From an uncultured Candidatus Saccharibacteria bacterium (lineage in GTDB: Bacteria > Patescibacteriota > Minisyncoccia > Phycocordibacterales > SIBU01), in NCBI GenBank assembly GCA_964430335.1, contig CAYSEN010000001.1, positions 1,653 through 65,652 of the forward strand: 64,000 nucleotides of DNA, given 5' to 3'. Both the position numbers and the translations under genes were made by a program. This document shows positions 4,945 to 17,996 of this stretch, piece by piece. Every line of letters starts with the position of its first letter. The stretch's first letter is position 1. The notes beneath the pieces were generated by a model. The model did not search any database. It was given only the letters and a program-made list of their open reading frames with translations, and was not told the origin of the DNA.

Positions 4945-5026
4945 AGGGGTCGCGAGTTTCGAGGCTGACGAGCCGAAGAAAACTTGTGACCACAAGAAAG
5001 TTCACTTAATGAACTATGTTTCTACC

Positions 5027-5428
5027 CTACTCCCTCCCAATCAAATAAACCCCGAGTAATTTTCTAAAATATTCCGTTTCGGGATTAAAACACGCTTCTT
5101 TTATATGCAATAAAGGATGTGACTCCGGTGAATACTCATAATGCGCTCGGATTTCTCCATCAATAAAAAGTCTAATGTGGTACTGAAAAATCTCTTTATC
5201 GATTTTTCTCATACTCAAAACCTCTCCGGGATCTTTCCATGCAATTTTTGCCAATTCAAAACCTTGGTCAAACAAATACGCCTCTAAATCCAATCTGTTG
5301 TAATTGGCGTTTAAATGACCTAGTAAATATTTTTGTCTGAAATCATGAAAACCCAATTTTTCAACCGTTCGTATGATCGGTGGCCAAACCTGATAGGCCA
5401 AATTCCAAAAGAATCGGATTTTTTCCAT
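5027..5428 (-). CDS. hypothetical protein
   Basis: 133-aa ORF with host-like composition, tightly packed upstream of the holA-like gene. No motif recognised. Confidence 0.5.
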   Translation of the reverse strand: MEKIRFFWNLAYQVWPPIIRTVEKLGFHDFRQKYLLGHLNANYNRLDLEAYLFDQGFELAKIAWKDPGEVLSMRKIDKEIFQYHIRLFIDGEIRAHYEYSPESHPLLHIKEACFNPETEYFRKLLGVYLIGRE

Positions 5429-6203: not shown

Positions 6204-8675
6204 CTACTTACTTTTCTCCATCTCTCCCCAGTTTTCTCCAACCTTCACTTCTACCTTGCAAACCACACCCTTGGTTTTTTCTGGTGAAATCACACTCTCC
6301 ATAATTTTTTTCGCCTCTGATATAAATTCACCTTCCGCACCTTTTTTAACTTCATAAACCAATTCATCGTGCACTTGGAGCAACAAGAAAACCTTGTCAT
6401 TCAAATTGTTTTTTTCAATGTACTGGTCTGCGTGAATCATCGCGATTTTAATAATATCCGCCTCCGTGCCTTGAATCGGCGCGTTAATAGCCATTCTCTC
6501 AGCTGCCGCTCTAATGAAAGGCAACTTTGAAGAAATTCCTGGAAAATATCTTCTCCTGCCAAAAAATGTTTCAGTGTAGCCTAACTTTCTTGTCTCAGAC
6601 TTTACATCTTCCAAATACTTGGCTAGGCCGGCAAACTTTGAAAAATAATCATTGTAAAATTTTTGAGATTCTTCTCTCGTTGTCCCCTCACCCAAATTCG
6701 CCCTAAGCGCATTTACACCCATTCCGTACATGACTCCGAAGTTGATGACTTTTGCCTTTCTTCTCATGTCAGGAGTAACCTTTTCAGGAGGTACACCGAA
6801 AACCTCCGAAGCCACTGCTGTGTGCACGTCCTCGCCGTTTTTAAAAATCTCAATCAATTTCTGATCGCCCGACAAAAAAGCAGCGATGCGGAGCTCAATT
6901 TGAGAATAATCAAACGCTACAAACTGAAAACCTTTGGTAGCCACAAAAGCGTTTCTGATCGCCCGGCCCAATTCCGTCTTGTTTGGAATGTTTTGCAAGT
7001 TAGGATTTTCACATCCCATTCTTCCCGTTGTTGTTCCAGCCTGCAAAAACTGAGCGTGAAGTTTTCCGTCTTTATCCACCATTTCAGGAATCGTGTCGAT
7101 GTAGGTTCCCAAAAGCTTTGAAAGTTCTCGGTATTCCAAGATCAAAGAAATTATTGGATGGACATCTCTTAGTTTCTCCAATTCAGATTCCTTAGTAGAA
7201 AGTGCTCCACCACTAGTCTTTTTCTGATTCTTGGCCTTAAGTCCAAGTTTTTCAAACAAAATCACACCGAGTTGCTTGGGAGAGCTAACGTTAAACTCCT
7301 CGCCGGCCAAACTCCAAATTTTCTTTTCAAGTCCAGCTAATGTTTTGTGATACTCCACCGACAATTCCTTAAGACGTTCTTTGTCTATAGCAATTCCCCG
7401 CTCTTTCATTTTAGAAACAACTGGCATTAGAGGAACCTCTATGTCGTTGAAAACTGAATTTAATTTATACTCGCTGAGTCTTTTTAAAATAATCTTTTCC
7501 GCTTCTTCAAAAGTTTTAGCACCTGTAAAATTCAAAATATCATCGAGCGTAGGATTTGTGGTGTTGGAATTGACCAACCACAAAGCAATAGCCACTCTCG
7601 CTAAATCTTTTGGATCCGGCGCTGGTATCGAGCTTGCAGAAGTTGAAAATAGGTTCTGAACTGGCGCTTCATTTTTAGTCTCCACTTTGTCACCCACTTT
7701 TGCACCGTTCTCCTTAGTTGAAGTTACACTTTTTCCGGAAAGTGCCTGTGTTAATCTCTGTCCCAGATTTCTAAACTCTAAGTCTGCAAAAATCTTTACG
7801 ATTTTCCCAATTTCAATACTTTCCTTCCACTCTTTTTCTGGCAAAACAAAATCGATAGGCGCGTCTCGTCGAATAGTGGCTAGCATTTTGCTAAACTCTG
7901 CTTCTTCTTCGTTGTCCTTAAGTAATTTAATAATGCGATCAGTAAGACCTGCTTTTTTAAAAGCCTTATCATCTTTTTTTAGACTTGCGTAAATATTTTC
8001 AACAGTGCCAAAGTTTTGTATCAAAATTGAAGCAGTTTTTTCACCGATCCCTTTAATGCCGATGATGTTATCCGAAGGATCTCCTCTTAGACCTTTGTAA
8101 TCTGGTAAGAGTTTAGGCGGAAAACCGAACCTTTTAACCACAGCTTCCTCGTCATAAAGGATCGTATCTTGAATACCTTTTTTCAACGTGTAAACCTGAA
8201 CCTTTTCATCGTCGACAAGCTGGAGTGTATCCATATCTCCTGAAGCAATTATAATGTCTGTTGGATTTTCACCTTCCTTTAGTTTTGAATTTCTATCATT
8301 TATCTTGTCGACAATTGTTCCTAAAATATCGTCGGCTTCAAAACCTTCCTTGTCATACATAGGAATTGAAAACGCTTCGAACACATCTCGAGATCTTTTC
8401 ATCTGAGAAACCAACTCAGGGTCTGCTTTTGCCCTCCCTGCTTTGTAATCTTTGTAAGCCTCGTGTCTGTAGGTCGGCTTTGGTAAATCGTACGCCGCCA
8501 CAATATAATCCGGTTTTAAATCAGCGATAATTTTTATTAACATGCTAGCAACACCATAAAGAGCGCCGGTAGGTTCACCTTTTGAACTGCTAAAGTCAGG
8601 TAGAGCATGATAGGCTCGATGCAATATCGCGTGAGCATCAAGTAACACCAGCCTTTTATTGTCATTTTTGGACAT
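6204..8675 (-). CDS. polA: DNA polymerase I
   Basis: 5'-nuclease N-terminus (LLDAHAILHRAYHALP). Pol motifs A (DYSQIELRI), B (RRKAKVINFGVMYGMG) and C (QVHDELV). Confidence 0.95.
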   Translation of the reverse strand: MSKNDNKRLVLLDAHAILHRAYHALPDFSSSKGEPTGALYGVASMLIKIIADLKPDYIVAAYDLPKPTYRHEAYKDYKAGRAKADPELVSQMKRSRDVFEAFSIPMYDKEGFEADDILGTIVDKINDRNSKLKEGENPTDIIIASGDMDTLQLVDDEKVQVYTLKKGIQDTILYDEEAVVKRFGFPPKLLPDYKGLRGDPSDNIIGIKGIGEKTASILIQNFGTVENIYASLKKDDKAFKKAGLTDRIIKLLKDNEEEAEFSKMLATIRRDAPIDFVLPEKEWKESIEIGKIVKIFADLEFRNLGQRLTQALSGKSVTSTKENGAKVGDKVETKNEAPVQNLFSTSASSIPAPDPKDLARVAIALWLVNSNTTNPTLDDILNFTGAKTFEEAEKIILKRLSEYKLNSVFNDIEVPLMPVVSKMKERGIAIDKERLKELSVEYHKTLAGLEKKIWSLAGEEFNVSSPKQLGVILFEKLGLKAKNQKKTSGGALSTKESELEKLRDVHPIISLILEYRELSKLLGTYIDTIPEMVDKDGKLHAQFLQAGTTTGRMGCENPNLQNIPNKTELGRAIRNAFVATKGFQFVAFDYSQIELRIAAFLSGDQKLIEIFKNGEDVHTAVASEVFGVPPEKVTPDMRRKAKVINFGVMYGMGVNALRANLGEGTTREESQKFYNDYFSKFAGLAKYLEDVKSETRKLGYTETFFGRRRYFPGISSKLPFIRAAAERMAINAPIQGTEADIIKIAMIHADQYIEKNNLNDKVFLLLQVHDELVYEVKKGAEGEFISEAKKIMESVISPEKTKGVVCKVEVKVGENWGEMEKSK

Positions 8676-9213: not shown

Positions 9214-9789
9214 TTATGGGCCAACTCGGTACCGCCTGATGGGCCCGGGACCATTGAGGTCCCGGATCTCCCGGATTCCTCCGGGAGATCCCCAGTAACG
9301 GTACCCTCCAGGGGGCGTGGGTGGTTCCCAACTGTATCCAGGAACCGTACCACCCTGTGGAAGCACGACCGGGACAGCTGGTGGTGTCATGACAACACCT
9401 TGAGGTGGCTGGGACCAAACCTGCCCTGGAGGAGGCGTGGCCCAGCTTCGCTGGGGACCAAAATTGAACTGTCCGTTCGATCCTGCTTGCGCCTGCTGTG
9501 CAGACGCAAGCCCGTTGGTGCGAGCGTACTCATGCTCACGACGCTCGTACTCCATCTTCACCATCGCCTCCTCGTGTCGGAGGCGTGCCTCCTGCAGTGA
9601 CCGGACATGCCGGTCGTATTGCTTGCCGCCATTTTCTAGCACCCTCTGTTCGGGCTCTTGCCCAAACTGATAGGGGCCCTGTCCACGAACGGCGCGGACG
9701 TGCTCGACCCGTGGGGTCGACGAACAACCGGCGAGAAGTACGGCCATTGTGGCGACGATGACCGAACCGATGAATTTAAAGGTCTTCAT
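9214..9789 (-). CDS. lipoprotein, Pro/Gly-rich C-terminal half, high-GC (foreign composition)
   Basis: Signal peptide with lipobox VLLAGC. 38/60 G+C at 9301-9360 against ~35% in neighbouring genes. Overlapping ORFs in other frames are shadow ORFs. Confidence 0.7.
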   Translation of the reverse strand: MKTFKFIGSVIVATMAVLLAGCSSTPRVEHVRAVRGQGPYQFGQEPEQRVLENGGKQYDRHVRSLQEARLRHEEAMVKMEYERREHEYARTNGLASAQQAQAGSNGQFNFGPQRSWATPPPGQVWSQPPQGVVMTPPAVPVVLPQGGTVPGYSWEPPTPPGGYRYWGSPGGIREIRDLNGPGPIRRYRVGP

Positions 9790-12078: not shown

Positions 12079-13158
12079 ATGTCAAGAAAGTCTAACACAA
12101 AACGAGCAGAAAATGACTCCGAAGAAAACAACACACCTGATGAAAAAACCATAAAAGACAAGGTTTTTTCGGACGATGAAGGTTTTTTAGATCAAACTCT
12201 AAGACCAAGTCATTGGGACGAATATATCGGTCAAAAAAATATTAAGGAGAATTTGAGGATTCTTTTGACCGCTGCCGCTGAAAGAAAACACCCGCCGGAG
12301 CATCTTTTGTTTTACGGCCCTCCAGGATTGGGAAAAACTACCCTCGCCCACCTCATTGCCAAGGAAATTGGTGCACAAATCAAGATAACTTCAGGACCTG
12401 CCATTGAAAAAGTTGGAGATTTAGCATCCGTACTTACAAATTTGTCACCAGGAGACATTCTTTTTATCGATGAAATTCACCGTCTCAACAAAGCTATCGA
12501 GGAAGTGCTATATCCAGCAATGGAATCTGGTCAGCTCGACATCATAATCGGCAAAGGTCCATCAGCCCGCACAATCCAACTTGAACTTCCTCCTTTTACT
12601 CTAATCGCCGCAACTACACGCATCGCACTTCTCTCTTCCCCGCTACGATCACGCTTTGGCGGAGGAGTTTTCAGACTCGAATTTTATTCTGATGAAGAAA
12701 TAGAGGAAATTGTAAAAAGATCTGCAAAAATTTTAGGAGTGGCGGTAGAAAAAACCGCCTCGCAAGAAATTGCCAAGAGAAGTCGTTTCACTCCAAGAAC
12801 TGCAAACTATCTTTTAAAACGAGCCCGAGATTTTGCTCAGGTGAACAAAGGTGATCTTACAAAAGAGATCGTTGATAAATCACTAGCACTGCTCGGAATC
12901 GATGAGCTTGGACTTGGGCACTCAGACAGAGCGCTTCTAAATACACTTATAGAAAAATTTAACGGTGGCCCTGTTGGACTAAACACTTTAGCAGCAGCTC
13001 TTTCTGAGGAGCAAGCAACCATAGAAGAAGTTCATGAACCCTACCTTCTCCAACTTGGCCTGATCGAACGCACACCGAGAGGACGTGTCGCATCCGAAAA
13101 AGCATATCGTCATCTCAAAATCTCCGTTCCAAAAAATCTTCAAGAAAAGCTCCTGTAA
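12079..13158 (+). CDS. ruvB: Holliday junction branch migration ATPase RuvB
   Basis: LLFYGPPGLGKTTLAHLIA, Walker B ILFIDEIHRL and other RuvB-specific motifs. ~30-aa charged N-terminal extension. Confidence 0.95.
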   Translation: MSRKSNTKRAENDSEENNTPDEKTIKDKVFSDDEGFLDQTLRPSHWDEYIGQKNIKENLRILLTAAAERKHPPEHLLFYGPPGLGKTTLAHLIAKEIGAQIKITSGPAIEKVGDLASVLTNLSPGDILFIDEIHRLNKAIEEVLYPAMESGQLDIIIGKGPSARTIQLELPPFTLIAATTRIALLSSPLRSRFGGGVFRLEFYSDEEIEEIVKRSAKILGVAVEKTASQEIAKRSRFTPRTANYLLKRARDFAQVNKGDLTKEIVDKSLALLGIDELGLGHSDRALLNTLIEKFNGGPVGLNTLAAALSEEQATIEEVHEPYLLQLGLIERTPRGRVASEKAYRHLKISVPKNLQEKLL

Positions 13159-13165
13159 AACAGCC

Positions 13166-13208
13166 AAAATAAAAGCCGCCGCGACAAGGTCGCGGCGGCT
13201 TTTATTTT
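13166..13208 (+). terminator. intrinsic terminator after ruvB
   Basis: aaaataaaagccgccgcga-caagg-tcgcggcggcttttatttt. Confidence 0.85.
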
Positions 13209-13482
13209 TGTGTGCCGAAGAGAGAGATTGCGATCCAAAAAGGTTGAACCTTTTTGGATCTAAACACACATTTCACTCTGCATTTTGTGGGCTTGTGACC
13301 AGCATCAATCTCAAAGTTAAATATTTAGAATGATGGCTGCATTAAAATGTGGAGAATTTTCATCCAGCACAAATCACTTTGTGATGGATTAACCCTAAAT
13401 CGAAACTTGAGATTCTCCCGAACTCACGCTTCTCTTAACCTTCGCGGACTTTTATAAGGAGGTCCGCACCCCGTGAAATAGA

Positions 13483-13791
13483 TCAACCGCCTTGGCTGAC
13501 CCATCGCTTGGCGGCATCAAGAGCCTCTCCAGCGTTCTCGAAACAGACAATGTCCGTTTCGTTGTGCCAGAACTTAATCTGGTCTGTGGCGTTCGCCAGC
13601 GCATCCAGCACCTCGGCGTCCGTCACTATTTTTCGAGTCGGGTGTAAACCCCGACCGAAGAAGCGTTCGAAACAACCTTCGGAACCTCGAACGCCTGAAA
13701 TCTGGAATGTTCGGTCACCAACCTTCCATTCCAGAGATTTCCGATTCCCCTCCACCCAAATGCGGAGGAGGGCTAGTTGTGTGGTGTTCAT
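13483..13791 (-). CDS. hypothetical protein (high-GC island gene e)
   Basis: 102-aa ORF with island composition, same strand as the other island genes. No motif recognised. Confidence 0.55.
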   Translation of the reverse strand: MNTTQLALLRIWVEGNRKSLEWKVGDRTFQISGVRGSEGCFERFFGRGLHPTRKIVTDAEVLDALANATDQIKFWHNETDIVCFENAGEALDAAKRWVSQGG

Positions 13792-13816
13792 AATGAACAG
13801 GGTGTGGGGTAAAGCC

Positions 13817-14197
13817 CTACACCAACGAGATCAGACAGACCTCTTTTTCCGTCATGTCACCCATACACCCGTAAGGGCAGTGGCCCTTTGGGGTGACATC
13901 GTAATCGTAGGAGATTCCAATGTTGCCGCAAATGCAGCAGCCTCCTCCTGGGACCCACCACACACCGGCGATGGGTTGAAAAACTCCCGTAGGAGTCAGA
14001 TAGGCCAGGAGTCCTTCGGATTCCTGGCCGCTATAGACAAGACGCTTTTTTGCAGCGTCTAGCACGGGGACACACTCTTCCCCCTGTGTTACTGAGCCGT
14101 CGGCCCAGTAACAGACGTAGCGAGGAATCTCGTTCCTCGCCTGAAGAGAACGAAGCAATGCTTCGATCTCTTTTTTTGATTTTGTTGAACTACTCAT
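13817..14197 (-). CDS. hypothetical Cys-rich protein (high-GC island gene d)
   Basis: 126-aa ORF with clustered cysteines (GGGCCICG, HCPYGCMG). No family recognised. Confidence 0.55.
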   Translation of the reverse strand: MSSSTKSKKEIEALLRSLQARNEIPRYVCYWADGSVTQGEECVPVLDAAKKRLVYSGQESEGLLAYLTPTGVFQPIAGVWWVPGGGCCICGNIGISYDYDVTPKGHCPYGCMGDMTEKEVCLISLV

Positions 14198-14285
14198 AGA
14201 ATTTCATTTTCGAAAAATCAAAAACAAAATTCTATGAGTAGTGCTGAATACTGTCTTTAGATTTACCAACGTTTTGATAAACCCA

Positions 14286-14335
14286 ATAAACAGGAGAAGT
14301 TGTAACCGCAACTTCTCCAAACCTAACGACAATTT
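14286..14335 (-). repeat. island hairpin element, copy 1 (terminator-like)
   Basis: 10-bp stem ggagaagttg/caacttctcc with a 6-nt loop. ~50 nt near-identical to 16058-16109. Confidence 0.85.
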
Positions 14336-14481
14336 TTTCTCGGGATAGTCGTCCTTCCCATGACACTGCATGTCAGGCCACACCATTTAGAACGGTGGCA
14401 ACTTTCCAGCATTTTTCATGCCGGACTTTTACGCACTTCTGTTACGAAGGTGGTGCGATCCTTCGGATGTCTTTCCATCAG

Positions 14482-14805
14482 TCAGAGAGTGACGCGGATA
14501 GCCACAACCTCGTCGTCCGCACTGCATTTGAATATACCAAGTACCTGTTCAAGGCCGTTTGTGCGACGTTGAAAGTCTTGGTCATCATTTGCATTGTGAC
14601 GATTGGTGGCATTTTCATGCGCAGTCTTCGGGAAAAAACAAACGCAATAAACGCTGTCGTTCCAAAAACCTGAACATGAATCCTCATCACTCTCTCCCTC
14701 CAAAATCGCTTCTGGCACATAAGTGAAATCAAATGTACCGAAGGTATTTCGAGCAATCTTTATTGCCCGAATGATCTCAGAGGGATTAAGGCTAACTTCC
14801 TTCAT
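14482..14805 (-). CDS. hypothetical protein (high-GC island gene c)
   Basis: ATG at 14805 is preceded by GGGAGGAGAG at 7-nt spacing. The ORF-track version extends to 14874. Confidence 0.55.
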   Translation of the reverse strand: MKEVSLNPSEIIRAIKIARNTFGTFDFTYVPEAILEGESDEDSCSGFWNDSVYCVCFFPKTAHENATNRHNANDDQDFQRRTNGLEQVLGIFKCSADDEVVAIRVTL

Positions 14806-14923
14806 GGAAGCTCTCCTCCCACTTTTTTCACTGAAGTGGCAAACCGTCGAATGCAGTTCCGCCAAACAGCTCACGTTTTACGATAGGCAGTGAGGGCCTT
14901 TGAGAGACTGACGGTCTCTCAAA

Positions 14924-15853
14924 CTACTTGAGGTACTTCGTGAGCACCTCAACCACCCGCTCGACTGAAAGGGTCGAGCTGACACCCTGAGGGCTTCCGC
15001 CGATGGTCGGGGAACCTCCCCAACCCGGCTCGAGGGTCGCCAACTCGGCGAGCGCGGACTTGATGTCCGCGTACTTGCTGGCCTCGAAGGCGCAGATCGT
15101 GAACTTCCGGTGGGGCTCTCCCGCCCCGAGCCGAAAGCTCGGGTTGAGCGCCACCACGACCGGCGCCAGCGCATAGCCAACCGACGTGGCGGCGCGGTGC
15201 GTCGACTCGACGACCGCAATGCACCCGCCGGCACAAACCTCGTGCCGAATCGCTCCGCTCTCAAGAGCGGCGATCATGTCGGCGCGCTCGCGCTCAACCT
15301 GAGCGCGATAGTTGCCCGGCTCCTCGCCGGTCAACAACCACTTTTCCATAGTGGCGACCCGCTCCCCGAGTGGGATCTTGAAGTCCGCAACCGCCGCCGC
15401 AATCGCGGCGAGCGGTCGGGACGATTCGGCCCCTGCCGAGCTATCGTCCCACGGGCTGCCCCGGGTCGGGAGGGGTTTCGGGCCGGTGTACCCGCCACGT
15501 GCGAACTTGTCGGCGGCGGCAACCATACTGATCCGATCCATCGCGGACTCGAGACCTTCGCCCTTCGCCCGGATGTTGAAGATCGCCATCGCCCCAACAC
15601 TGTCGAGGTCGGCTCGCACAGTGACCAATGTCGCCCTCTCGGCCGGGATCTCTACCGTCAGCGCGGCCTCGATGGCCGAGCTGTTGGCGTCTCCTTCCGA
15701 TCCGTGCTGGGGGTCGAGGTTGTACACGCACCGAGCCGCAAGGCTCGGGACGGTCACCTCGATTCCGAACACCTGCCCGGACGAGAAAACCTTCTCGTTC
15801 GCCTCAGAGGCGGCCGGAAGATTGCGGGGATCCAGAATTGCAAAATGAAACAT
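14924..15853 (-). CDS. hypothetical protein, 309 aa (high-GC island gene b)
   Basis: Longest island ORF with sensible amino-acid composition, whereas overlapping frames are Arg/Pro/Gly-rich shadow ORFs. ATG at 15853 preceded by AGGTGA. Only a loose DHH/DHHA1-like motif spacing (RADLDSVGA ... GWGGSPTIGG). Confidence 0.65.
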   Translation of the reverse strand: MFHFAILDPRNLPAASEANEKVFSSGQVFGIEVTVPSLAARCVYNLDPQHGSEGDANSSAIEAALTVEIPAERATLVTVRADLDSVGAMAIFNIRAKGEGLESAMDRISMVAAADKFARGGYTGPKPLPTRGSPWDDSSAGAESSRPLAAIAAAVADFKIPLGERVATMEKWLLTGEEPGNYRAQVERERADMIAALESGAIRHEVCAGGCIAVVESTHRAATSVGYALAPVVVALNPSFRLGAGEPHRKFTICAFEASKYADIKSALAELATLEPGWGGSPTIGGSPQGVSSTLSVERVVEVLTKYLK

Positions 15854-16057
15854 TTTGTAATTCACCTATCTTCAAACAAAAGCAAAAAAATGTGACTATT
15901 TTGGTACACACTTATTTTGTTCTCACAAAACGCGGGTTTCTAAGTCGCGAATTGTGCCTGAATCGGATTTGTCGACAAGTGAGCGGGGGTCTAGACTGTC
16001 CCCATTCACCTGTCGAAACCAATTCGTGTCTACAGACTGGCAAAATTTGTCAGCCTG

Positions 16058-16109
16058 ATAAACAGGAGAAGTTGTAACCACAACTTCTCCAAAACCCGTG
16101 CGACAATTT
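16058..16109 (-). repeat. island hairpin element, copy 2
   Basis: Same stem as copy 1, with one loop difference (taacca vs taaccg). Flanks ataaaca... and ...cgacaattt are conserved. Confidence 0.85.
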
Positions 16110-16158
16110 ATCCATTTTGTGGAATAGGAAGTCGCCCTTCCTTTGTTGTTGGTCTGGA

Positions 16159-16557
16159 CTAGCGATATGTTGCATCTTTCCAGACTGTAAAACTACGACC
16201 TTCCGCGGTCGTAGTTTCGATGATCTGGTGACCGGGAGCTTCCCCGGTCTCAGCCAGAACCTCCTCATCCAGGCATTCCATCCTGGATGAAAGAGTGGTC
16301 AGCCGGAGATTCCCGGCCACGGCGAGTTTCTCGAACTCGCCGTTCATCTCGCGCAACTGCGCGAGACAGTAAGCCAGATGTTCTGGCGCATCTTCGACGC
16401 CTGTAGCATCGACCGATATCTCCGGACCGCACAGGCAGTCCGGAGATGTCTCATTCAGAAAGAGCAACTGCCCCCTCCGAACGAACCACAATTTCATTTT
16501 CATAAAATTGTAAAAAGGATGGTACCGCCAGCCAACATGGCCAGCGAACAAATACAA
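16159..16557 (-). CDS. hypothetical protein (high-GC island gene a)
   Basis: ORF of 114-132 aa. Start ambiguous: TTG at 16557 or ATG at 16503 (MKMKLWF...). Confidence 0.5.
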   Translation of the reverse strand: MYLFAGHVGWRYHPFYNFMKMKLWFVRRGQLLFLNETSPDCLCGPEISVDATGVEDAPEHLAYCLAQLREMNGEFEKLAVAGNLRLTTLSSRMECLDEEVLAETGEAPGHQIIETTTAEGRSFTVWKDATYR

Positions 16558-17189
16558 TCCCTCTTTCCGGCACTAAGTAAATCTAACGCCGGAGAAGAGG
16601 AATAACATTGCGGTTATTGCTTTGGCAAAATTTGTTCCGCCTTACTCCTTCCTCTCTATTTAGTTTTCAAATTACTTCCCTACTCTACCTATCACTTTCC
16701 GCAACTCGCGGACTTCCTGGTGTAAGGACATTTTGAAGTACAAAGTGGGTTAGACTTTACACTTCATCGATGTCCTGACGAGCCTTCTCGTCGACAACGG
16801 GCGATGAGTTTACCTTAAAGGTATATCTCCGTCATTTGGAATGGGTTTCGAAGCCAGACCATATGTAGAGCACTCATCATTCGAAACGAGATATTCAAAA
16901 GGCTGCCTCTCTCCCCACTCTCTCTTCTTTCCATACTTAGCCGCTTTCGCGGAGGCTATGGGACCTTCCCTTTCGGGCTAGAGGTGGGGGGCAATCTTTC
17001 GGCTATCTCCTGAACGAACTTGACTTTCTGGCAATAGAATATCTTAATTAGATAGCGAGTGTCAATTATTTATGACATAAAATGGCCGGTTATTGCAAAA
17101 TCTAGTAACAACATGGATTTTATGGCTTATCCACATATTACTATTGTCATATACTTGTGACAAAAACAGCTTTATGCTAGACTAAAAGT
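16558..17189. other. ORF-free, hairpin-dense region with strong purine/pyrimidine strand asymmetry (candidate leader/ncRNA or island end)
   Basis: No ORF of 60 aa or more. Helices at 16725-16776, 16777-16792 and 16941-16952. 26/27 pyrimidines at 16906-16932. DnaA box at 17127-17135. Confidence 0.4.
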
Positions 17190-17996
17190 ATGGAAAATTC
17201 ATCATACGAAAAATTTTTAAGCGAGTTGGGCCTAACAAAAGAACAATCTTCCGTGTATGAAAGCCTTCTAAAAAACGGCCTTTTGCCGGCTAGACTTGTT
17301 TCCTTAAAAACAGGAATAAAGCGCAGCTTGGCCTATAAGATAATTGAACAGCTGATTGCCCTAGGTTTGGTTGAAAAAAGGGAAAATATTGGCAAAGTCA
17401 CTCTGTTCTTCCCTACCCATCCCGGAAAACTTCGTGAATTGGTCCAGAGACGCGAGGAGGAGCTGAAAAAGGCGGAGGCTAGCCTCGGTGGAATTATGGG
17501 CAAAATGGTTTCGGATTTTAATTTACTTTCAGGAAAGCCAAATGTTCAATTCTATGAAGGAATGGACGGTATGAAAAAAGTTCTTGAAGACTCTTTGACT
17601 GCGGAGGGTGAGATTTTGGCTTACTCAGATATTGTGGCGATACAAAAATACATACCCGAAGTAAATGCTGACTACGTTGCGAAAAGAAGAAAATTTGGTG
17701 TTAAGAAAAAAGGTTTGATATTTGATTCTCCAGAAGCTAGAAAAATACTAGAGGGTTACAATCCTGACATTACTGAAAACAAATTCATTAAATTTAAAGC
17801 TGATCCTTCAAAAACAATTATGCAGATATATGACAACAAGATTTCATATATCACTCTTAGTGAAAATCAAATGATAGGCGTTATTGTGGAGGACAAACAA
17901 ATCGCTTCACTGCACAGAAACCTATACGAGTATCTTTGGAATACTATTCCGCAAGACGGCTCATCTGCGTCGGTCGCGAAAAAGTTTGAAGATTAG
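17190..17996 (+). CDS. TrmB-family HTH transcriptional regulator
   Basis: N-terminal winged-helix pattern LGLTKEQSSVYESLLKNGLLPARLVSLKTGIKRSLAYKIIEQLIALGLVEK. Confidence 0.65.
   Translation: MENSSYEKFLSELGLTKEQSSVYESLLKNGLLPARLVSLKTGIKRSLAYKIIEQLIALGLVEKRENIGKVTLFFPTHPGKLRELVQRREEELKKAEASLGGIMGKMVSDFNLLSGKPNVQFYEGMDGMKKVLEDSLTAEGEILAYSDIVAIQKYIPEVNADYVAKRRKFGVKKKGLIFDSPEARKILEGYNPDITENKFIKFKADPSKTIMQIYDNKISYITLSENQMIGVIVEDKQIASLHRNLYEYLWNTIPQDGSSASVAKKFED

Follow-up and report, generated by a model that had tools for sequence, protein, structure and literature searches.

A structured intergenic RNA that recurs in ribozyme-associated gene arrays of Patescibacteria

Introduction

We analysed a 64,000-nucleotide (64 kb) stretch of DNA from an uncultured Candidatus Saccharibacteria bacterium (assembly GCA_964430335.1, contig CAYSEN010000001.1), referred to below as the window, and in particular an element that occurs there in two copies between the genes of a small minus-strand array. 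The original prediction, made from the sequence alone, described the copies as a duplicated hairpin of ~50 nt that might act as a reused terminator, as an operator or attenuator, or as a recombination site. Here, we describe the element as part of a larger covarying RNA with relatives in other Patescibacteria loci, where it shares arrays, and one particular intergenic slot, with self-cleaving ribozymes. In bacteria, the same genes recur beside twister and hammerhead ribozymes, an unexplained association (PMC6765202; PMC4604425). Structured RNAs that lie near genes associated with these two ribozymes have been grouped as RNAs associated with genes associated with twister and hammerhead ribozymes (RAGATH), a concept of Weinberg et al. 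(2015) that we take up in the outline given by PMC6765202 and PMC4604425. Twister, pistol, hatchet and twister-sister were themselves discovered through such gene contexts (PMC6765202; PMC4604425), and the sharing of genomic contexts by unrelated ribozyme classes has been taken to mean that the activity may matter more than the fold (PMC6765202).

Results

The array occupies an island of elevated guanine-plus-cytosine (GC) content (~13270-17050; GC 0.47-0.62, versus ~0.39 elsewhere in the window). It is flanked by ruvB (12079-13158, plus strand) and by a gene for a TrmB-family regulator (17190-17996, plus strand; Pfam PF01978, E = 2.3e-11), which is divergent from the array. Read along the minus strand, the array comprises gene a (16159-16503, 114 aa), gene b (14924-15853, 309 aa, 62% GC), gene c (14482-14805, 107 aa), gene d (13817-14197, 126 aa) and gene e (13483-13791, 102 aa), followed by a twister-like ribozyme that is described below. 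None of genes a to e had a match in Pfam, PHROGs, PADLOC or NCBIfam, and neither the island nor gene b showed similarity to phage DNA or proteins. A homologue of gene c lies 3' of gene b in one related locus (L028), and a homologue of gene e ends the array of another (L058). Exact-protein look-ups found the locus in metagenome contigs with unchanged neighbours, and a TrmB-family homologue adjoins the array in 14 related loci, mostly in divergent orientation and co-directionally in L057 and L090.

Gene b is the conserved member of the array. It had 813 homologues, and the 120 listed were mostly 57-75% identical; they carry NCBI names from Patescibacteria and from Minisyncoccales metagenome-assembled genomes (MAGs), and the GC content of the host genome is 39%. 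Its AlphaFold model (predicted local distance difference test score, pLDDT, 86.7) matched PAP phosphatase and RecJ2 in Foldseek searches with a probability of 0.98-1.0 and a template modelling (TM) score of only ~0.3. On this predicted fold, gene b would resemble the DHH/DHHA1 phosphoesterases, a resemblance that we treat as a lead and not as an assignment. An invariant GWGGSP-IGGSPQG motif runs through the protein, in which no Pfam domain was found.

The element stands twice in this array, at 16025-16142 between genes a and b (copy 2, 118 nt) and at 14250-14359 between genes c and d (copy 1, 110 nt), both on the minus strand. As had been predicted, each copy lies 3' of one gene (a or c) and 5' of another (b or d), and the two copies partition the high-GC island. 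Copy 2 is separated from the gene upstream by 17 nt and from the gene downstream by 171 nt; the corresponding distances for copy 1 are 123 and 52 nt. The 118-nt gap between genes b and c holds no copy of the motif. Directly after the gene b stop codon there is a perfect 9-bp hairpin of its own (14900-14922, minus strand; UUGAGAGAC/GUCUCUCAA).

The part of the element that first attracted attention is a 36-nt stretch (14286-14321 and 16058-16093) in which 35 of 36 bases are alike and the sole mismatch falls in a loop, so that the reported near-identity is real. The 26-nt hairpin GGAGAAGTTG-N6-CAACTTCTCC within it occurs exactly twice in the window and never arose in 100 dinucleotide shuffles, which bears out the claim that the repeat is beyond chance. 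Both reported flanks, ATAAACA and CGACAATTT, accompany the two copies: on the minus strand the former is the complement of UGUUUAU, that is the 5' strand of stem III (see below) plus two loop bases, and the latter the complement of AAAUUGUCG, which includes the 3' strand of a pseudoknot. The ~50-nt repeat therefore exists, but it understates the similarity, which reaches ~110-120 nt; in a minus-strand alignment the two copies share 82% identity over ~120 columns, and their differences are compensatory. This value stands out against those of other copy pairs and points to a recent duplication or gene conversion. The 64 kb hold no copies beyond these two array copies, and the family is strand-specific, which does not fit a dispersed repeat of the repetitive extragenic palindrome (REP) or miniature inverted-repeat transposable element (MITE) type. 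Several assemblies stop at the 36-nt repeat, as is expected because the repeat exceeds the assembly word size.

From 5' to 3' the element consists of a hairpin (P0) engaged in an H-type pseudoknot, a G-rich junction, hairpin B and a long 3' hairpin. In copy 2, the P0 hairpin AGGAAG/CUUCCU (16126-16142) presents a GCGAC loop (16131-16135) that forms the 5' strand of the pseudoknot; the 3' strand GUCGC (16100-16104) belongs to the flank cgacaattt. The conserved single-stranded junction ACGGGUUUU (16091-16099) leads into hairpin B (16065-16090), all 10 base pairs of which covary in the family; adding U63-A68 gives 11 bp and a GGUU loop. The long 3' hairpin (16027-16064) pairs stem III, UGUUU (16060-16064) with AGACA (16027-16031), around hairpin C (16033-16057). 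Copy 1 repeats this plan with a GGGA/UCCC P0 hairpin (14342-14359) whose loop includes ACGAC (14348-14352), a pseudoknot 3' strand GUCGU (14326-14330) in which an A-U pair compensates for the G-C pair of copy 2, a 10-bp hairpin B with the loop CGGUUA (14293-14318) and a long 3' hairpin (14252-14292) with stem III, UGUUU (14288-14292) and AGACA (14252-14256), around hairpin C (14258-14285). UGUUU thus follows hairpin B directly and finds its partner AGACA ~35 nt downstream, while hairpin C differs in sequence between the copies with its pairing preserved. The 3' hairpin contains one bulged U and conserved U.G and G.U pairs. Single-sequence folds of the two copies gave z-scores of -3.6 and -4.8 (the 3' hairpin region of copy 2: -4.8).

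Two further candidates were rejected. A pistol-like P2 helix, pairing AUAAA 5' of the pseudoknot strand with UUUAU after hairpin B, joins two conserved A/U-rich sides that show no covariation. The word GGUUA, considered as a protein-binding site, has four copies in the island, all intergenic, at the background density of the window (1 per kb).

With a profile of the two window copies, clear relatives were detected in L058 (two) and in L028 (one). A covariance model built on the same two copies (R1) gave 32 matches. A second model (R2), built from 15 matches, gave 73 in related Patescibacteria loci at E ≤ 1, these E-values being rough, spread over 24 of 85 sources. The window copies, which are in the training alignments of both models, scored 140.6 bits (R1) and 92.3 bits (R2) for copy 2 and 126 and 90 bits for copy 1. 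Outside the training set, strong R2 matches were found in L093 (39.6 bits), L067 (at 4071, 39.5 bits), L057 (at 7149, 36.5 bits) and L024 (at 6925, 31.2 bits), and also in L050. Gene b loci contained 43 matches above 25 bits; as a control, 587 kb from 79 viral contigs, preselected for GGAGAAG...CTTCTCC plus TTTAT, yielded a best score of 22.3 bits. The remaining 60 kb of the window held no R2 match. Among the 73 matches, 70 lay on the gene strand and 3 on the opposite strand.

Family members are ~100-130 nt long, with stems and loops of variable length, and several arrays carry five to eight copies. A copy starts at the stop codon of the upstream gene or a few tens of nt from it, and the next open reading frame (ORF) often begins 0-50 nt beyond the copy. 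The original prediction reasoned that a generic terminator family would be found ubiquitously after unrelated genes; the element does follow many unrelated genes, but only within this type of array, and the searches elsewhere did not find it as a generic terminator. Identity between copies averages 55% within an array and 47% between arrays (P = 6e-9).

The alignments gave strong evidence for the pairing. On alignments fitted to the model, 94.7% of cells were paired and all 26 of 26 pairs showed double changes; none of 500 shuffles matched this value, and slid controls reached 42-52%. RNAalifold independently recovered hairpin B and the long 3' hairpin with its one bulged U. For P0 and the pseudoknot, we used a MAFFT alignment of 7 loci that was not fitted to any model, on which 92.9% of cells were paired and five of eight pairs were changed on both sides (slid controls 23-54%). 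The pseudoknot strands change together from GCGAC/GUCGC in copy 2 and ACGAC/GUCGU in copy 1 to GCGAU/AUCGC in L058 and GCAAC/GUUGC in L085. This 5' pseudoknot is clear in about one third of the members and was undetected in the others. The window, L058 and L024 modules all carry the junction R-GG(G)UUU(U), and the sequence after hairpin B has the U-rich family consensus YUUUAU. U.G and G.U pairs recur at fixed positions across the family, and the folding strand is therefore the gene strand.

Searches beyond the related loci returned little. Among 185,579 species genomes, the stem with any loop turned up as only nine hairpins, from unrelated phyla, none of them with the same loop or flanks. Viral contigs contained no exact stem, and the looser hairpin-plus-TTTAT pattern gave 79 sites, none of which fits the full model. 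A metagenome pattern scan that included the flank had no matches, in a collection evidently devoid of samples carrying the strain. No family of Rfam 15 matched the element (171-nt region, cmscan, E ≤ 10), including hammerhead, twister, RAGATH-18, Drum, pistol, hatchet, twister-sister and the hepatitis delta virus (HDV)-like models. At the gathering threshold Rfam found nothing in the island; at E ≤ 10 it returned a twister-like match plus noise (microRNA and small RNA models placed on hairpins).

That twister-like match (Rfam RF03160; 13270-13348, minus strand) scored 50.5 bits (E = 1.7e-9), short of the 67.2 bits set for gathering. It closes the array on the 3' side, beyond gene e and beside the ruvB terminator. 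Judged by this match it is probably a type-P1 twister ribozyme. It is kept in L011 (3872-3950), whose upstream genes differ entirely. In related gene b loci, the intergenic spacers hold type III hammerheads, as identified by Rfam matches. A strict type III hammerhead descriptor found 24 sites on the gene strand and none on the opposite strand, in 19 of 80 loci, versus one site in the 587 kb control. Hammerheads and the motif occur in the same arrays, for example in L085, L024 and L028, and we rate the element accordingly as a RAGATH-type RNA: its structure is conserved and covarying, and it recurs between genes together with twister and hammerhead ribozymes and their associated genes.

The element and the hammerheads also share parts. 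In L085 and L040, the pseudoknot (GCAAC/GUUGC in L085) and hairpin B stand 5' of a hammerhead, and in L024 the hammerhead is preceded by a different 5' hairpin, a GGGUUA junction and hairpin B. In these sister modules, hammerhead stem III begins right after hairpin B. When upstream regions were aligned, the modules proved collinear, with the hammerhead core and stem II appearing as an insertion relative to the 3' hairpin of the motif; the core (CUGAUGA, GAAA) is present in the sister modules and absent from the window elements. We then compared the slot upstream of orthologous gene b in the 68 loci that have at least 330 nt there; in the window it holds the motif. A hammerhead occupied the slot in 14 loci, the motif in 10, both in none and, under the criteria used, neither in 44. 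The L024 locus, from a Minisyncoccales MAG, also contains a 126-nt direct repeat (5000-5125 and 7316-7441, 100% identical), each copy of which combines a complete type III hammerhead with a hairpin, the GGGUUA junction and hairpin B; at 8120-8178 there is a third copy, with 83% identity.

The gene content of the array varies among strains. With an identical RuvB, contigs L011, L008 and L010 depart from the window sequence at 13533, 14183 and 14494, respectively; the regions concerned are L011 4135-5306, L008 8261-8438 and L010 6100-6144. In L011, all sequence upstream of the final 50 nt of gene e has been replaced by AT-rich small genes. L058, the closest relative (74% identity in TrmB), has homologues of genes b and e with other genes between them. 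The suggestion that the gene pairs between repeat copies might vary as cassettes was borne out insofar as array content differs among strains and relatives, but all three breakpoints fall inside gene ends and outside the repeats. An integron attC identity was rejected, with no RYYYAAC/GTTRRRY cores at the element ends on either strand, no integrase nearby and the breakpoints off the repeats. No integrase was called within ~8 kb, where the neighbours are polA, tsaE, a type II secretion system (T2SS) ATPase gene, ruvB, the TrmB-family gene, a GNAT gene, yebC and ruvC. Many contigs end in the array region, which suggests a locus that is hypervariable at the population level. The array is a variable, horizontally spread gene array of Patescibacteria.

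Several other features of the region are recorded here. A non-coding leader of 630 nt (16560-17190) separates the TrmB-family gene from gene a. Just 3' of copy 1 on the messenger RNA (mRNA), positions 14189-14242 form a 25-nt inverted repeat (88% complementary, 4-nt loop) whose downstream arm holds the start and first codons of gene d; going by the sequence, the resulting hairpin would bury the gene d initiation site. At 13166-13208, a perfect 20-bp palindrome flanked on either side by A/U runs is likely a bidirectional terminator common to ruvB and the array, and a second perfect palindrome, of 14 bp, lies at 13232-13260. A second GC peak of the window (0.51) coincides with a 191-aa ORF rich in Pro, Gly and Gln (9214-9789, minus strand) with a lipoprotein-like N-terminus, located between tsaE and the T2SS ATPase gene; its length is 191 versus 193 aa between strains.

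Discussion

The structure of the element, its strand and placement, the company of ribozymes and the exchange with hammerheads together lead us to read it as RNA-level punctuation, that is a processing or 3'-end element of a polycistronic transcript. This is the reading we favour, with the chances for and against it about evenly balanced. The element would be transcribed on the gene strand within a multi-gene RNA, and the transcript would be split or ended between cistrons at the element. The pseudoknot and hairpin B could then remain on the upstream message and protect its 3' end, a stabilising role that we infer for them. The 3' hairpin would be the cut site, either for the RNA itself or for a double-strand-specific nuclease such as RNase III, or a stop for some polymerases. 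In the sister arrays this task would fall to a hammerhead ribozyme joined to the shared 5' module.

Several points weigh against this reading. Co-transcription and processing of the array are likewise steps that we infer. The roughness of the model E-values and the fitting of the main covariation alignments to the model detract from the family evidence, and the largest class of gene b loci has neither element in the slot. The 3' hairpin is a nearly continuous helix with a single bulged U and is therefore a poor candidate for a catalytic core, although a tertiary fold could still involve the pseudoknot, the conserved junction and the loop. In a terminator scan both window hairpins qualify, six of the eight bases after the stem being U, and a promoter-like AAGACA-17-TAGAAT (14257-14229) shares bases with the end of copy 1. 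At the window locus, a boundary formed by a terminator and a promoter, or partial terminator function, is possible.

A more specific explanation is that the element is a new class of self-cleaving ribozyme, in which the pseudoknot, junction, hairpin B loop and bulged 3' hairpin would form an active site that cuts near UUUAU and replaces the hammerhead. The shared slot and 5' module, and the mutual exclusion of motif and hammerhead upstream of gene b, are what this explanation would lead one to expect. The array also holds a twister, the discovery of twister, pistol, hatchet and twister-sister in such contexts sets a precedent (PMC6765202; PMC4604425), and the element has a multi-helix fold with a pseudoknot, a conserved single-stranded G-rich junction and conserved loop nucleotides. 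We nevertheless regard a new ribozyme class as unlikely: few conserved unpaired nucleotides lie near the presumed cut site, the 3' hairpin is almost fully paired and the 5' pseudoknot is undetectable in many family members. Several motifs from ribozyme-type contexts are reported to have failed to self-cleave when they were assayed, which also counts against it. A bolder variant, which we consider doubtful, would make the element a modular self-cleaver or the obligate RNA partner of a dedicated nuclease, with a shared pseudoknot-plus-hairpin 'handle' and an interchangeable 'cutter' (a hammerhead or the bulged hairpin) punctuating mobile hypervariable Patescibacteria arrays.

If the copies were reused intrinsic (Rho-independent) terminators, then hairpin B and its U-rich tail would stop transcription after genes a and c, and the conservation of the flanks would be incidental or would tune efficiency. 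The terminator proposed in the original prediction stood in one respect, in that both copies pass a hairpin-plus-U scan on the minus strand, with the tails UGUUUAUC and UGUUUAUU. A stable 10-12 bp hairpin with a U-rich stretch after a stop codon does resemble a terminator; the U-rich sequence, moreover, follows hairpin B throughout the family, and the promoter-like site 3' of copy 1 would suit a transcript boundary. The hairpin is, however, only one helix of a larger covarying RNA. The U-rich tail is half of a helix whose downstream strand covaries with it, with compensatory changes at the outer positions (CUAUUU/AGAUAG, CCACUUU/AAAGUGG, UAUCUUCC/GGAGAGAUA), and the flanking domains are conserved, with covariation in the pseudoknot upstream and in stem III and hairpin C downstream. 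In the hammerhead modules hairpin B is followed by UCUGUC and no U-tract, and the next genes are so tightly packed that many copies, 0-50 nt before an ORF, would leave no room for a promoter. Hairpin-plus-TTTAT sites elsewhere scored at most 22.3 bits and did not match the model. Termination as the whole explanation therefore appears improbable.

A regulatory RNA that binds a protein or a ligand, whether an attenuator, a riboswitch-like leader or a site for an array-encoded protein, could instead control the downstream gene. The complex conserved fold with its pseudoknot would be in keeping with such a role, as would the greater likeness of copies within arrays, which is what a co-evolving factor would produce, and the position of the element upstream of genes b and d, together with the 25-bp hairpin that would sequester the gene d start codon. 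The spacing between the element and the following start codon, on the other hand, ranges from 0 to ~290 nt, the downstream genes are mutually unrelated, and a swap with a hammerhead is hard to square with ligand sensing, so that we assign this alternative a low probability. A site acting in the DNA, be it a palindromic operator bound by the neighbouring TrmB-family regulator or a cassette-shuffling recombination site, would make sense of the perfect 10-6-10 inverted repeat of hairpin B, of the TrmB-family gene beside this and 14 related arrays and of the variable content and heterogeneous GC (0.47-0.62) of the array, but is very improbable: against it stand the 70 to 3 strand bias, conserved G.U pairs that would mismatch on the other strand, variable stem and loop lengths, covarying helices outside the palindrome, breakpoints in gene ends, the absence of attC-type cores and the lack of an integrase call nearby.

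Among known systems, the RAGATH-type RNAs are the closest in kind. Like them, the element is an intergenic, strand-specific, covarying RNA in arrays with twister and hammerhead ribozymes, beside genes of no assigned function; it differs in its hosts, which are Patescibacteria as opposed to the Firmicutes and phage contexts described, and in having no Rfam 15 match. The type III hammerhead modules of L040, L085 and L024 share the pseudoknot and/or the junction plus hairpin B, the slot 5' of gene b and a similar helix after hairpin B, whereas the window element lacks the CUGAUGA/GAAA core and stem II, its 3' part being a plain bulged hairpin. In pistol (RF02679), too, the loop of a 5' hairpin pairs with a downstream segment to form a pseudoknot, and another hairpin comes next; unlike pistol, the element has no demonstrated P2 helix around the pseudoknot strand and hairpin, conserves other nucleotides, has a 9-nt junction in place of 2-3 nt and does not match the model. 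The succession of a hairpin and, directly, a long interrupted hairpin recalls hatchet (RF02678; PMC6561176), but the hatchet conserved linker, L2 nucleotides and large internal loop are absent, as is a model match.

Phage T7 offers a further comparison. Between its early genes, RNase III hairpins (~15-20 bp, irregular) separate cistrons and leave a stabilising 3' hairpin. The element resembles these in having an irregular intercistronic hairpin, and differs in its additional pseudoknot domain and second hairpin; RNase III cutting is here a candidate only.

We rate the element as a ribozyme-associated structured RNA that is new to Rfam 15 and that may be among the unnamed candidates of 2015. 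In the searchable literature we found no report of ribozymes, or of this motif, in Patescibacteria or the Candidate Phyla Radiation (CPR). The locus, with its conserved gene b, its TrmB-type regulator and a slot filled by a hammerhead or the motif, offers a handle on why ribozymes cluster near genes. The pairing of ribozymes with gene b, a predicted phosphoesterase-like enzyme that would act on nucleic-acid ends, is noteworthy in this respect. If the element cuts or directs cutting, it would add to the short list of natural RNA processing devices, and the arrays would be assemblies of interchangeable RNA parts; if no cutting takes place, then the slot needs something other than cleavage. Either way, ribozyme-punctuated arrays are placed in Patescibacteria.

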